Origin: Gammaproteobacteria bacterium
GTDB lineage: Bacteria; Pseudomonadota; Gammaproteobacteria; Eutrophobiales; Eutrophobiaceae
Length of the DNA stretch: 64,000 nt
NCBI GenBank assembly: GCA_965116495.1
Contig: OZ220696.1
Span: 2,592,001 to 2,656,000 of the forward strand
Direction of reading: 5' to 3'
This document shows positions 51,797 through 55,541 of this stretch, one piece after another. The notes beneath the pieces are model-generated. The model saw nothing but the letters and a program-made list of their open reading frames with translations. It searched no databases and had not been told where the DNA came from. The position numbers and the translations under genes were made by a program. The first letter of the stretch is position 1. Each line of letters starts with the position of its first letter.

Positions 51797-51828
51797 AAAA
51801 AAACCCAGGCCGGGGTCCCGGCCTGGGT
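51797..51828 (-). terminator. strong intrinsic terminator immediately upstream of the first sheath gene
   Basis: Minus strand ACCCAGGCCGG-GACC-CCGGCCTGGGT-TTTTTT: 11-bp perfect stem plus U-tract. Confidence 0.85.
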
Positions 51829-51868
51829 CTGTCTTGGTCATGTGTCTTTGTGAAGACACACTCATGTC

Positions 51869-51910
51869 AGTATAGTGGTAATTTATAGTTTTCTATTTGA
51901 ACAGCGTCAA
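51869..51910 (-). promoter_or_regulatory. PR'-like sigma70 promoter with a downstream -10-like pause element
   Basis: TTGACG (51910-51905), 17 bp, TATAAA (51887-51882), then TATACT at about +2 to +7 (51874-51869). Confidence 0.7.
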
Positions 51911-52258
51911 GAACTAATTTACCAGGCATACAAGATTACTGTATTCCTTCACTTTCTACTGAAATTGTTGAATGCTCAATCCGGACGCATTATTACCAGC
52001 ATTAACGTAAGTTGTATCCTTTCGTTCAAACAATGCCCATATATTTTCTACCAGAACAAAAAGGACATATCCGTATCAAATAACAAATTTGACGGGGCAG
52101 GATATGCCCAACCAGATCGACTGTGATCCAATGCCCCTGGTCGGCGGAGCTATCCGGAAGGAGGTATGTGCAGGAGAAAGAACTCCGCCGTAAAACTGAC
52201 TCTACGCCATTGAAACAAAATCAGAACTGGTCTGGATCATGCAGATATTCATCAAACA

Positions 52259-52516
52259 TCACCTAATACGGCATGCTGTCCAGGCCTGATCCCATACTTG
52301 CAGTGCTTCCCGGCACTGCGCGTGAACCAGTACCGCATCCTGCCAGGCACGTAACAGGTCGCGCAGTGTCTCCCCATCATCAGGCATTGCCGGACATTCC
52401 ATTGCAGGTTTCCGGGGTGGACACACTTCCACCTTGGTTTCAACTACCGTACGAGGCAACCCTCCACACCCGGCCAGCAGCAGTAACATCACGGTAACCG
52501 ACAATCGATAGGGCAT
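52259..52516 (-). CDS. o-spanin (Rz1-like lipoprotein)
   Basis: Lipobox LLAG-C, Pro/Cys-rich mature part; overlaps the upstream i-spanin gene. Confidence 0.72.
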   Translation of the reverse strand: MPYRLSVTVMLLLLAGCGGLPRTVVETKVEVCPPRKPAMECPAMPDDGETLRDLLRAWQDAVLVHAQCREALQVWDQAWTACRIR

Positions 52517-52836
52517 GTTACCCCCTCCCCCGCTGCCTCAATCTCATCAATGGTACGCTGCTCCTGCTCGGCCAGGTCTCGCACCTTTGCCACCCGCTGC
52601 TCGGCCTGTGTCTTCGCTTTCTCAAGAGCAGCTATTGCAATTCTTTGTCGTTTATTAGCCTTGAGGTTTTCTTCGTTAATGCGCATTAATTGCCGCATCT
52701 CTGCCTCCGCCCTCCCAGCGTATTTAATTGTGCGCACTATGTATGCAAGAGCGCCCGTGCAAACCATTGCCGTGATAGCGAGGGTCAGCAAGCCGGTGGC
52801 AGTGCGTCTTGCAAATGGGGCAGCGAAAAACATCAT
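52489..52836 (-). CDS. i-spanin (Rz-like)
   Basis: N-terminal TM segment, long coiled coil, C-terminal CP.DC.LP. Confidence 0.68.
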   Translation of the reverse strand: MMFFAAPFARRTATGLLTLAITAMVCTGALAYIVRTIKYAGRAEAEMRQLMRINEENLKANKRQRIAIAALEKAKTQAEQRVAKVRDLAEQEQRTIDEIEAAGEGVTCPIDCRLP

Positions 52837-53102
52837 ACTTCAGTGTGTCGCTTCCTGCTGATCTCGTCAATCGTGCCTCTGAGGTACGCCAGGTCCTCTC
52901 TCAGCTCTGAACGGCCGGCGGCGGTCTTGGCTTTTTCGCTGTCCATCCTCATATCCAATTCCTTCCAGGATTTATCCATCCTGGCGTCTATTCGGCTATC
53001 CATATCAATAATGTCCTGTTCTGTGTTCTCGACTTTTTCGACCAGTTCGGTCAATCGCCACATCCATACGAGTGTGTTGATTATTCGGCCGAAAGATTTC
53101 AT
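52833..53102 (-). CDS. hypothetical phage-like coiled-coil protein
   Basis: 4-bp ATGA overlaps with both neighbours. Confidence 0.6.
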   Translation of the reverse strand: MKSFGRIINTLVWMWRLTELVEKVENTEQDIIDMDSRIDARMDKSWKELDMRMDSEKAKTAAGRSELREDLAYLRGTIDEISRKRHTEV

Positions 53103-53464
53103 TTTTTGGCCTCCTCAAAGTACTTGACGTATTGGTTTACCCTGCGACCTTTCCAAAAATAAAAAACCCCGGTATCAGACCTGGTCAACCAGACCACATC
53201 CGGTAACGGGGCTTTTTTACGACAGATTTCTACCGGCGGTTTTCCCCATTTTCCCAGGTACTGGCCGCAGACAGCGTAACTTGCTGCCTGCGCTGGTGCG
53301 CAACCGACAAATGCGATCAGGAGTGGCACGGCGATGATCTTGTACCCTGCCAACAAGGGCATCTCACCGTCATAATTAACCACAAATAAATAAAAGAGAA
53401 GACATGTTGCAACAATTATTGCCAATGTCACTGCATTTTCCGGCGTACCATGGCGATTCGCCAT
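53099..53464 (-). CDS. hypothetical membrane protein of the lysis cassette
   Basis: Two hydrophobic segments; start probably MANRHG (53464) rather than 53620. Confidence 0.5.
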   Translation of the reverse strand: MANRHGTPENAVTLAIIVATCLLFYLFVVNYDGEMPLLAGYKIIAVPLLIAFVGCAPAQAASYAVCGQYLGKWGKPPVEICRKKAPLPDVVWLTRSDTGVFYFWKGRRVNQYVKYFEEAKK

Positions 53465-53976
53465 ACATACTGTATAGTCTCCCGACTGTAGTGACCGGTG
53501 ACCAGATACAGGTAAGGCGCTATACCGTCCCAACAGCGTTCTCCGCCGGACAGTTCCTGGGCTTTCAGGATATTGCCGTTCCCGGCATTGTAACCGGCCT
53601 GCCCCATTGTCCGTCGGCACTCTTGTGTCCTGTCAAATATCCAGAAATCCATCGACTGGGCCATGTAGCGAGCGCCCATGATGATGTTGTATCTGGCCTC
53701 GAAGACATTGCCATCCACCTGGCTCTGACGCTGCAGATCTGCCAGGGTTGTCGGCATGATCTGCATAACGCCTTGAGCGCCGACTGGTGAAACCGCAGTG
53801 GTCACCAGCGAGCTCTCGGCTATTCCCTGCGCTTTCAACCAGCACCAGTCCTGTTGTTCTGGCGGCCAGTAGTACATGACAGCAACTCGAAAGTGTTTAT
53901 CAAATGCCTGGGTATAACCGGGCGCGTGGCATTGAGCCGCGAACAGAGAAAGCATTAATACAGCGGCTGCGCTCAT
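53428..53976 (-). CDS. endolysin, SLT lytic transglycosylase with N-terminal signal/SAR-like segment
   Basis: AQ..AES, AVSPVGAQGVMQIMP.T, AGYNAG.GN, ETIQYV.RI. Confidence 0.9.
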   Translation of the reverse strand: MSAAAVLMLSLFAAQCHAPGYTQAFDKHFRVAVMYYWPPEQQDWCWLKAQGIAESSLVTTAVSPVGAQGVMQIMPTTLADLQRQSQVDGNVFEARYNIIMGARYMAQSMDFWIFDRTQECRRTMGQAGYNAGNGNILKAQELSGGERCWDGIAPYLYLVTGHYSRETIQYVWRIAMVRRKMQ

Positions 53977-54425
53977 CCGAGAGGCGTTCCCATATTTGCT
54001 ATCAGGTAGAATATAGCTATGGCGACGCCGGCCGTGCAGATGGCGAATGCGATGGCCAGTTCGCCGTCACCTTGTTTTGTTGTTTTGCCTTCTCTCCATG
54101 CGTCTGCCATATCGTCAAGCTCATCAAGAAATGGAAATACCAGCTTGCGCACGGATTCGATACGTATGAGGACATATAACACTATCAAGCTGACAGCGAG
54201 ACCGGATAATCCCCATACCAACTGATTCAAAAGGTGGTTGACCTGCAAAATCCAGGTTTTGAAAAACCCGGTCGGATCGTAATATATGCCGGCGATAAGC
54301 GCTGCAATCAGCGCGAGTGACAGCAATGTGTATTTGCTCAGCAACCACTTGATGCTGTTAACTACAAATCGAAACACGGCTTCAAACCCTTTGCCGCAGG
54401 CAAGATATATGTTCTCTTCTTTCAT
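53973..54425 (-). CDS. putative holin-like membrane protein
   Basis: Three hydrophobic segments; directly upstream of and overlapping the endolysin gene. Confidence 0.5.
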   Translation of the reverse strand: MKEENIYLACGKGFEAVFRFVVNSIKWLLSKYTLLSLALIAALIAGIYYDPTGFFKTWILQVNHLLNQLVWGLSGLAVSLIVLYVLIRIESVRKLVFPFLDELDDMADAWREGKTTKQGDGELAIAFAICTAGVAIAIFYLIANMGTPLG

Positions 54426-54583
54426 CTCAGGTCAACTCCACTGCCATCAATATTGAATGTACTTATTATTAAGGAAGCTCTGATCAAGTCCGTCCGGGAC
54501 TTGTGTTTTCTTTAGCTCCAGGCCATACATCACGGCCTTGGGATTGGTGATAATCTCCGACTGCCCGTCGAAGTCCGCACAGG

Positions 54584-55039
54584 CTATCGGCCCATCAGGT
54601 GCTTCTGTATAAGGAGTAAAGTGCTGTTAATCTGCTTGAGTTCGCCCGCTTGTGAGGCCGAGGATTGAACTACCTCATTGATACGATTGTTAATGCTGGC
54701 AATCACACCAGACAGATTCAATTCTTTCATTTCCGCTTCCAATACCGCCAGTTTCTTGGCATTATCAAGCGCTGCAGAGCGATCCGGCATGTCTGACTTT
54801 TTAAGATAGTCGCGTTCCAGGATAAGTGGTAGCTCGCTTAATTTTGACAGACTATCCAACTCAGCAAGCATCCTCTCCAGTCTCTGGCCTTGCTCGGATA
54901 CACGAACCTCAGTCTCCTCGATCACCTTCTGGTTTGCCGTAGACCTGCTGGTAATGTATGTATATATAGCTGATGCAGAGGCAATCACTACCGAGGAAAT
55001 AAATAAGTACAGATCAATCTTCTCGACGTACTCGACCAT
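54584..55039 (-). CDS. phage-type membrane-anchored coiled-coil protein (DUF2730-like)
   Basis: N-terminal TM, coiled coil, C-terminal L..I...L.LI..HL pattern. Confidence 0.55.
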   Translation of the reverse strand: MVEYVEKIDLYLFISSVVIASASAIYTYITSRSTANQKVIEETEVRVSEQGQRLERMLAELDSLSKLSELPLILERDYLKKSDMPDRSAALDNAKKLAVLEAEMKELNLSGVIASINNRINEVVQSSASQAGELKQINSTLLLIQKHLMGR

Positions 55040-55163
55040 AATTGATAAATAGCTCAGAGACTCGTTGTACTGACACCGACCAAACCTTACTTGTTATCTC
55101 ATCCGCTGCATTATCGTGAGTCTCAGCGTTGGCAAAGCAAATCATCGGAAATAATCGCTTTGT

Positions 55164-55541
55164 TTATGACCATTTCCCTAACAACCAGTACTTTGCCATT
55201 CTCAAGTATTCATGAAATGTGACACGGCTCATATTCAACTCGTCTGCCTTTTGCATCACACTGCCGGACTGCAAATAATATTTCATAACCACTTCTTTTA
55301 ATTTCACCGGCATCTCACAAATTGCTTGTTCGGTCTTTTCCGCTTCTTTATCGTCTGGTAACCTCGTCTGAAATCCCTGGTAGACATATGCCCCTTCCCG
55401 CCGCAATTTGTTCTCCCTGGTTTCAGTGGGGAACCCCAGTCCAAAATTGCGTCTGACCCTGGCCCAGCGAGCCCAATGGCTTAAACTTATTTCTATGAAG
55501 GCCGTGGGATCTACAGCTTTCGTTGACTGACGTTGTTTCAT
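55164..55541 (-). CDS. phage antitermination protein Q family
   Basis: IE..L.HWARW, GLGFP, DD.EA...E.AI, YYL, C-terminal HTH KADELNMSR.TF...L..A..WL.G; directly upstream of the lysis genes. Confidence 0.78.
   Translation of the reverse strand: MKQRQSTKAVDPTAFIEISLSHWARWARVRRNFGLGFPTETRENKLRREGAYVYQGFQTRLPDDKEAEKTEQAICEMPVKLKEVVMKYYLQSGSVMQKADELNMSRVTFHEYLRMAKYWLLGKWS

Follow-up and report, generated by a model that had tools for sequence, protein, structure and literature searches.

How does an extracellular contractile injection system (eCIS) become switched on, why is it expressed in some cells only, and how is cargo encoded at unlinked loci co-expressed with the particle? These questions, which have been raised for eCIS in general (PMC10598620, PMC6748792), are posed in concrete form by a 64,000-nt stretch of a gammaproteobacterial genome of the family Eutrophobiaceae (GCA_965116495.1, contig OZ220696.1, positions 2,592,001 to 2,656,000), hereafter called the window. 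Its minus strand carries a long operon whose gene set, with all parts found by Pfam, is that of an Afp/PVC/MAC-like eCIS; a promoter and leader precede the first sheath gene, and a small gene for a protein resembling phage antiterminator Q lies further upstream. We propose, with a probability of roughly two in three, that Q21/AlpA-type antitermination at dedicated pause-containing promoters, together with self-activation of Q, controls this eCIS. The locus thus offers a concrete candidate mechanism for the activation of an eCIS and for the co-expression of unlinked cargo. The coordinates of all features are collected in Table 1.

A preliminary description of the locus, made from the letters alone, had placed a promoter (TTGACG-17-TATAAA), a second, -10-like hexamer (TATACT), a hairpin and a terminator in front of the sheath genes, and all of these elements were recovered in their places. 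TATACT begins 13 nt from the start of the -10 hexamer, and the leader hairpin, TGTGTCTT-CACA-AAGACACA (51860-51841), folds as described. The terminator (51830-51801) has an 11-bp Watson-Crick stem, or 13 pairs counting G-T, and the end of its T-run at 51797 lies, as had also been claimed, 35 nt ahead of the sheath ATG (51762). Promoter, -10-like element, 80-nt leader and terminator are all kept ahead of the sheath gene in three relatives (G014, G015 and G022). In these genomes and the present one, seven of seven leaders of the sheath genes and of a 613-aa open reading frame (ORF) align over 80 columns without a gap, two-sided (compensatory) changes occur at 3 of the 13 terminator pairs, and the first hairpin is found again, though its register varies. 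An Rfam scan of positions 50000-57000, leader RNA included, gave no match. The layout is also unique in the 4.34-Mb genome: strong promoter-like sites number 273, a -10-like hexamer follows at a distance of 11-13 nt in 27 of them, and a single one of these 27, the sheath promoter, has a strong terminator too, against 0 such composite sites in three block-shuffled genomes, the criteria having been chosen with the sheath site in view. A consensus promoter scanner omits the sheath promoter because its -10 hexamer lacks the T at -7.

Judged by sequence comparison, the sheath promoter belongs to a dedicated promoter family. With a scoring matrix trained on 10 sites, all from relatives, four sites of this locus headed the ranking of the whole genome (51910, 56109, 55984 and 52039, at 73, 36, 32 and 18 bits), followed by a site with 6.9 bits, while the best of five shuffles reached 11.5. 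The last three of these copies had not been part of the preliminary description. They complete two tandem pairs, one before the sheath gene and one before the Q gene and its upstream neighbour orf81, with a terminator after each pair; the distal copy of the sheath pair is degenerate here and its orthologues in the relatives read TGGACA-17-TATAAA. A 22-site model (E<=0.001) found 4, 11, 19 and 16 copies in the present genome (G000), G014, G015 and G022, respectively, and zero in 16 of the 19 congeners without Q. For the anatomy of the family we used 58 sites that exceeded 14 bits when scored up to and including the -10 hexamer or were window copies (4), with 36 lying outside the training alignment. 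Conservation is seen in CYGGTAA(A)T at about -50, in TTG, in RTYYRRAC (the spacer box) and in TATAWA, which stands 17 bp beyond the -35. The pattern xAxxxT follows 13 nt from the start of the -10 in 45 of the 58 sites and in 24 of the 36 held-out ones, a count biased upward by the use of a search model that included the second hexamer; at any other offset from 6 to 25 it occurs in at most 6 of the 36. The sites are related by descent; when look-alikes were collapsed, the pattern stood at offset 13 in 18 of 26 clusters versus a background of 6%. Furthermore, spacer-box strength rises and falls with the strength of the pause hexamer (30 clusters, p about 0.01), whereas upstream-box strength does not, a post hoc comparison to which six weak sites had been added and in which selection effects are likely. 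Many copies read ATTWCCTG or ATTACCAC from -7 to +1, which loosely matches, in inverted orientation, the CTGGTAAAT box lying about 42 bp upstream. Other readings of the motif were set aside. The consensus of sigma54 promoters is GG-N10-GC; here the GG of TGGTAA and the GC of TTGC are 13 nt apart, and sigma54 was rejected. Inspection of the motif beside the respective consensus sequences spoke against sigma32, sigma28 and LexA.

The 125-aa ORF that had been taken for a Q-family gene about 3.3 kb upstream lies 3.25 kb from the sheath promoter, and its product is likely a Q21/AlpA-type antiterminator, an assignment made because of its match to PHROG79, its homologues, its predicted fold and the prophage position of its relatives. 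PHROG79 (anti-termination protein Q-like) matches residues 15-123 (E=9e-6), and a profile search brought up 585 relatives at E<=0.001. Among 96 aligned family members, consisting of the query, 7 chosen proteins and 88 near-full-length matches from 150 of the 585 relatives, PF06530 was found in 29, PHROG79 in 60 and Sigma70_r4_2 in 8. The structure model (mean pLDDT 75, weak at residues 32-61) aligns with Q21 (6jnx_P) over residues 9-125 (Z 7.8, root-mean-square deviation (rmsd) 6.6, 103 residues) and with AlpA over residues 15-125 (Z 5.9, rmsd 5.9, 88 residues), and 6jnx_P has the top query TM-score, 0.54, among the Foldseek matches listed. A single-sequence search of the PDB sequences with the 125-aa protein found nothing. 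The Q-family profile matched 21 of 400 genomes of the class; 14 stretches from 9 genomes were retrieved and the neighbours scanned at 4 non-eCIS loci. At 3 of the 4 the Q-family gene stands behind replication-initiation or RusA genes, and it stands ahead of terminase and capsid genes in G033 and of a ParB/methyltransferase gene in G511. Such a placement is that of Q in lambdoid phages. Proteins P0016-P0023 are 41-59% identical to the 125-aa Q, and order-level matches in G119, G123 and G124 (E 1e-4 to 4e-6) lie within frames of 560-580 aa. The closest Q family occurs in gammaproteobacteria with small genomes, in truncated modules of the order cro-O-P-(rusA)-Q (L142-L151, L138), some of which adjoin conjugation-like genes and show no late genes. 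A search of viral and metagenome contigs gave no Q homologue.

The Q gene has its own copies of the sheath-type promoter. PQ1 and PQ2 lie in tandem upstream of orf81-Q, and the terminator between them and the two genes is found at the same place in the three relatives. Q is 77-78% identical across the four species, and orf81 adjoins it in G014, G015 and G022 with 71-73% identity. The 81-aa product of orf81 gave no family match and no informative fold match, only generic helical bundles; it shows no helix-turn-helix (HTH), and a complex prediction with Q scored 0.01. orf81 was not found in G001, G016 and G019, three congeners without detected Q. No repressor gene adjoins Q. Behind PQ1, PQ2 and the terminator, the Q run continues into a lysis cassette: orf151 (one transmembrane segment), orf150 (three such segments, and holin-like by topology and position alone), an SLT endolysin, two small ORFs and Rz-like plus Rz1-like spanins. 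The preliminary description had supposed that assembly and lysis could be timed separately; because the lysis genes stand behind two PQ copies and a terminator, they would rather be under the control of the same switch. The three relatives have orf81 and Q followed by a gene for a membrane protein of 193 aa and then by promoter, terminator and sheath, without a lysis cassette at this place, and an orthologue of the endolysin is missing as well (best E 5e-5, to a gene for 504-520 aa present in all five genomes tested). A hairpin with T-run occurs at 53167 inside the cassette, and so does a dispersed repeat of 36 bp (54469-54504), which contains a small hairpin and has more than 20 genome copies. 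In the relatives (L008 5244-8873; L011, L014) an ORF of 613-630 aa without family, an extracytoplasmic function (ECF) sigma factor and FecR form one run, which adjoins orf81-Q upstream and stands behind a terminator-bearing promoter copy; the 613-aa ORF was not found in the present genome.

Q and the sheath gene co-occur in the same 4 of 23 congeners and both are missing from the other 19, a count affected by gaps in some genomes and by the non-independence of kin. A contrast with RfaH-type control had been drawn before and it stands: an ops element (within 2 mismatches) was not found in either leader, and RfaH (TIGR01955) did not exceed the cut-off in any of the 4 genomes. The survey of eCIS loci for Q genes that had been suggested covered 27 other loci in 24 genomes, with four further genomes that had matches left out and several loci ending at a contig edge. 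It turned up a Q-family gene upstream of one eCIS, in a genome of another family (G217), but not at the other 26, and the linkage of Q to eCIS is thus rare. G217 (L107 3379-5163) has two divergent Q-family genes just before the sheath gene. Ahead of the co-oriented one stand TTGACA-17-TAGTAT-5-TAAATT and TTGCAT-17-TAGTAT-5-CACAAT, with a common spacer motif unlike that of the present locus, and a hairpin plus T-run can be seen by eye after each promoter, though the terminator scanner did not list them. The G217 Qs group with prophage Qs, and a single clade with the Q of this locus was rejected by the approximately unbiased (AU) test (p-AU 1.2e-5; the group was named after the tree was seen, and G033, G304 and others were left out), suggesting a separate capture of Q in that lineage. 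A comparable module of Q and eCIS, its Q being of separate origin, thus appears to exist in a second family. In catalogued eCIS operons (PMC8213781 supplements, 12 of 15 files), PF06530 accounts for 0 and PF03589 for 1 (Erwinia oleae) of 22,287 Pfam matches, and a Pfam-based survey of this kind would miss the 125-aa Q. No report of Q controlling an eCIS was found in the literature searched, subscription journals being mostly outside it.

The idea of a single operon gated by Q holds in so far as the module before the sheath gene is conserved; it proved incomplete, as the module appears to be part of a regulon with auto-regulation. Each relative has 11-19 copies, mostly ahead of eCIS_core, ankyrin or no-family genes. 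From the 40-odd non-structural sites, 26 first ORFs were picked as representatives and scanned, yielding eCIS_core in 4, ankyrin repeats in 8, a dehydrogenase in 1 and no family in 13. Conversely, the relatives have 17 eCIS_core matches, 11 of them with a strong site immediately upstream or separated by one gene, 3 with a weak site and 3 at the tail of the main operon. Fourteen promoter copies precede one protein family of 250-670 aa without Pfam match. Members of this family (L052, L063, L066, L067, L070, L071, L074, L075, L076, L082) have acidic, proline-rich N-termini and share a GRP(Y/H)xxFVE motif. The ankyrin proteins and the 250-670-aa proteins may well be eCIS cargo. In the present genome no copy of the promoter is dedicated to the cargo genes, which sit behind the two internal terminator-like hairpins of the operon. 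A leader terminator follows 13 of 13 promoters of the sheath genes, Q and the 613-aa ORF in the relatives, as well as all 4 copies here.

The sequences show a promoter family of constant spacing, a leader of 80 nt whose terminator covaries, linkage between Q and eCIS, and promoter copies plus terminator upstream of orf81-Q. We consider this a real, conserved regulatory module, and probably a further form of the Q-type control of domesticated phage machines. Q-type factors have been described as using a binding element in the promoter spacer, a NANNNT pause element and a leader terminator (PMC9371919; 10.1101/2024.11.20.624540), and a Q-type mechanism is favoured because the parts of this locus match. 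Holoenzyme with sigma70 (or RpoS) would start near 51876-51875, and sigma region 2 would then grip TATACT and make the polymerase pause. Q would bind the RRAC spacer box, thread onto the RNA exit channel and yield a modified polymerase able to pass the terminator of the leader as well as those inside the 37-kb operon. Positive feedback is predicted because Q's own promoters share the design of the sheath promoter: a small amount of Q would lead to more of it, and the result would be an all-or-none switch that is thrown in a minority of cells and activates together the lysis genes (which follow Q directly in this genome), the particle and its cargo. At the cargo promoters without terminator, the effect of Q might lie in releasing the pause or in processivity. 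The invariance of TGGTAA, the weakness of the -10 and the lack of terminators at cargo promoters suggest a second activating input, possibly an initiation-level activator, for which orf81 is a candidate by comparison with GafY/GafZ. More tentatively, at somewhat less than even odds, eCIS lineages captured a phage Q more than once and turned it into a self-amplifying master switch, in which Q would antiterminate its own transcript and load at dispersed pause-containing promoters, with the particle, lysis and 10-20 unlinked cargo loci co-firing in a committed subpopulation. If so, the promoter motif would be a DNA barcode for orphan eCIS cargo, including the 250-670-aa family and many ankyrin proteins.

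Several observations weigh against control by Q-type antitermination, and some of them would suit a different role for the 125-aa protein, that of an initiation activator or sigma-region-4-like factor that recruits polymerase at the TGGTAA or spacer box, with the leader terminators being leaky or otherwise handled. The Pfam scan of the protein, proposed earlier as a check against Phage_antitermQ, gave no match at E<=0.01, and the family profile recovered neither Q21 nor AlpA from the PDB sequences. The ring region of the model is of low confidence (pLDDT under 60). Sigma region-4 domains head the fold matches (Z 8-8.9); they cover residues 54-125 only and are tied with or above Q21, and among the weak family matches are sigma70-ECF and a phage 'transcriptional activator' family; fold scores as middling as these do not by themselves separate Q from a sigma4 domain. 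The promoters can be read the same way, with the upstream box as their most invariant part and a -10 that is always weak: T at -7 occurs in 0 of the 58, which also makes it doubtful that the ~80-nt abortive RNA is constitutive, as had been assumed. Furthermore, 40 of 41 cargo-type sites in the relatives lack an intrinsic terminator and the remaining one is weak, so that read-through of terminators cannot be the whole function. The second hexamer of PQ2, TGAGAT, lacks the conserved pause A. Finally, 3 of the 19 congeners without detected Q or sheath carry the motif (three copies in G016, one each in G001 and G019). One of these five sites precedes a short eCIS_core gene and two look like counterparts of sites in Q-bearing genomes, one of them before the same dehydrogenase-family gene where G015 retains a candidate cargo ORF; a MalT-like regulator follows the fourth, while for the fifth no clear target was seen. 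Some look like relics, yet they argue against strict dependence on Q. The search bias and common descent of the sites temper the counts given above. Recruitment by an activator would, however, leave unexplained the xAxxxT at a fixed offset, the presence of strong terminators at a constant 80 nt, the alignment of the N-terminal helix with Q21 and AlpA, and the prophage position of the relatives; we regard it as unlikely, while giving it more weight than the alternatives that follow.

That the second hexamer (TATACT, TATAGT, TACAGT) is itself the true -10 and the RRAC box its -35, with no pause at all, is improbable. The reader could then be sigma70, RpoS, an alternative or split sigma formed by orf81 and the 125-aa protein, or the ECF sigma of the relatives, which is encoded with FecR upstream of orf81 there; this pair is not beside Q in the window, and none of the 50 listed fold matches of orf81 is a sigma region 2. 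The second hexamer does have a T at position 6, which the first never has. The genome contains rpoS, and CTATACT before the sheath gene resembles the RpoS consensus; a C before the second hexamer, however, is present in only 3 of the 36 held-out sites. GAAC is an ECF-like -35 core. Against this reading, the TTG-17-TATA spacing is retained in all aligned sites, and the first hexamer is properly placed for a pyrimidine-purine start in 23 of 26 clusters, compared with 13 of 26 for the second. Least probable is a relic, that is, a module once functional and now decaying here, or prophage leftovers consisting of Q and lysis genes next to an eCIS. The locus may indeed be decaying, since sheath gene 2 is interrupted by an insertion sequence (IS); the insert of about 8.5 kb within a tube gene of G022, the motif copies in Q-less congeners and the degenerate distal sheath promoter and PQ2 point the same way. 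Decay would have to be reconciled with the identities of Q and orf81 across four species, the conserved promoters, the compensatory changes in the terminator and the promoter copies at 11 of the 17 eCIS_core matches, and for a prophage remnant one would miss other phage replication or head genes, of which Pfam and PHROG scans of the window found none beside Q.

Lambdoid phages have one late promoter, downstream of Q, and are not known to use self-activation. Here there are several promoters, some upstream of Q, with the pause hexamer at offset 13 rather than 11-12 and no T at -7, whereas the succession of promoter, -10-like pause, short terminated RNA and long late operon is shared with Q/PR' of lambda, 21 and 82 (PMC9371919). 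The switch described as lambda-style is supported by sequence in its Q family and conserved layout, but its nearest models are Q21, AlpA and BrrG rather than lambda Q. AlpA of Pseudomonas aeruginosa, which has a CACGAT pause element at -1 to +5 and is switched on by cleavage of the repressor AlpR (PMC7969949, PMC9371919), resembles what is proposed for this locus in being a domesticated antiterminator of Q21 fold, with a binding element between -35 and -10, a -10-like pause and a terminator before the first gene, and in governing lysis genes plus a second unlinked locus. It differs in having two target operons, compared with 4 to 19 promoter targets per genome, chiefly those of an eCIS, for the Q described here, and in being repressed by AlpR, while this Q has no neighbouring repressor gene and is preceded by its own promoter copies. 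BrrG of the Bartonella gene transfer agent (GTA; 10.1101/2024.11.20.624540) is also Q21-like and serves a domesticated phage particle, with a required NANNNT after the -10 and a leader terminator; that particle packages DNA and has one reported promoter with a long leader, in contrast to a toxin-type injection particle with an 80-nt leader and a dispersed regulon. In the Caulobacter GTA, GafY and GafZ (PMC11150451) form an adjacent pair of an activator with about 18 promoters and an antiterminator with a spacer element, to which the orf81-Q pair, the upstream box and the confinement of terminators to the main operons correspond. GafZ is, however, reported to be unrelated to Q or AlpA and to have a single target, whereas spacer box and pause hexamer occur here at many cargo promoters, and the absence of an HTH sets orf81 apart from that pair. 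Among eCIS, Afp/PVC use AnfA1/RfaH at ops and others GerE/BTAD regulators (PMC6748792, PMC8213781); the long operon gated by a processive antiterminator or linked regulator is common to both, but here neither ops in the leaders nor RfaH in the four genomes was found. If our proposal is correct, Q-type antitermination extends from prophages, AlpA and GTAs to an injection system, with predicted positive feedback, and the promoter signature could be used for finding orphan cargo.

Table 1. Features of the eCIS locus and its putative control region (positions within the window).
Feature	Position	Strand	Basis or remark
eCIS operon	14663-51762	-	Pfam
Internal terminator-like hairpin, before first eCIS_core gene	24780-24811	-	This genome only
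Internal terminator-like hairpin, between sheath 3 and tube 1	44925-44956	-	In all 4 genomes
IS with DDE transposase inside sheath gene 2	47436-49528	-	8 genome copies >99.6% identical
Predicted 80-nt leader/abortive RNA	51797-51876	-	Hairpin 51860-51841 + terminator 51830-51797
-10-like hexamer TATACT, candidate sigma-dependent pause element	51869-51874	-	xAxxxT conserved there
-10 hexamer TATAAA	51882-51887	-	T at -7 absent; 17-bp spacer to -35
Spacer box GTTCAAATA (family RTYYRRAC), candidate Q-binding element	51894-51902	-	Conservation; tracks pause hexamer
-35 hexamer TTGACG	51905-51910	-	Read from sequence
Upstream TGGTAA box, about -50 to -42	51917-51925	-	Least variable element of the family
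Distal sheath-promoter copy: CTGGTAGAA, TGGGCA, TACAAC, AATGCT	51998-52054	-	18 bits; degenerate
Lysis cassette	52259-55039	-	Family scans + topology
Putative Q21/AlpA-like antiterminator gene, 125 aa	55164-55541	-	PHROG79, homologues, predicted fold
orf81, conserved 81-aa helical protein, candidate co-activator	55543-55788	-	Directly upstream of Q
Intrinsic terminator, short stem, 8 T, between PQ copies and orf81-Q	55845-55872	-	Terminator listing
Promoter copy PQ2: TTGGTAAAT box, TTGCAG, TATAAA, second hexamer TGAGAT	55943-55999	-	32 bits
Promoter copy PQ1: CTGGTAAAT box, TTGCAG, TATAAA, TACGAT	56068-56124	-	36 bits, matrix from relatives only

The eCIS operon comprises four sheath genes, two tubes, CIS_tube/LysM, VgrG, gp25, baseplate J, fibre, tape measure, AAA, spike tip, two Pvc16, two eCIS_core and genes with metallophosphoesterase and glycosyltransferase domains. 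The co-oriented run stops at the glycosyltransferase-domain gene (14663) and measures about 37 kb including the 2.1-kb IS, somewhat less than the ~39 kb first given. Sheath gene 2 (46797-50315), which the IS interrupts, is intact in the relatives. The IS carries a co-oriented TTGACA-17-TATCCT at 49391, which could drive the downstream genes without Q. With the insertion at the G022 locus (L011/L012), which splits the first tube gene, a structural gene is disrupted in 2 of the 4 loci. The joint 49525-54469 was considered as a deletion and rejected, since the same junction, with an IS end next to a dispersed repeat, occurs at G000:4238682. Between the fibre and Afp12-like genes, a short unannotated ORF (35154-35505, minus strand) appears conserved in the three relatives. 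Upstream of Q, positions 56256-63317 hold a defence-like island with antitoxin-like ORFs, type I restriction HsdR and an AAA_21/DUF4276 pair interrupted by a second IS.

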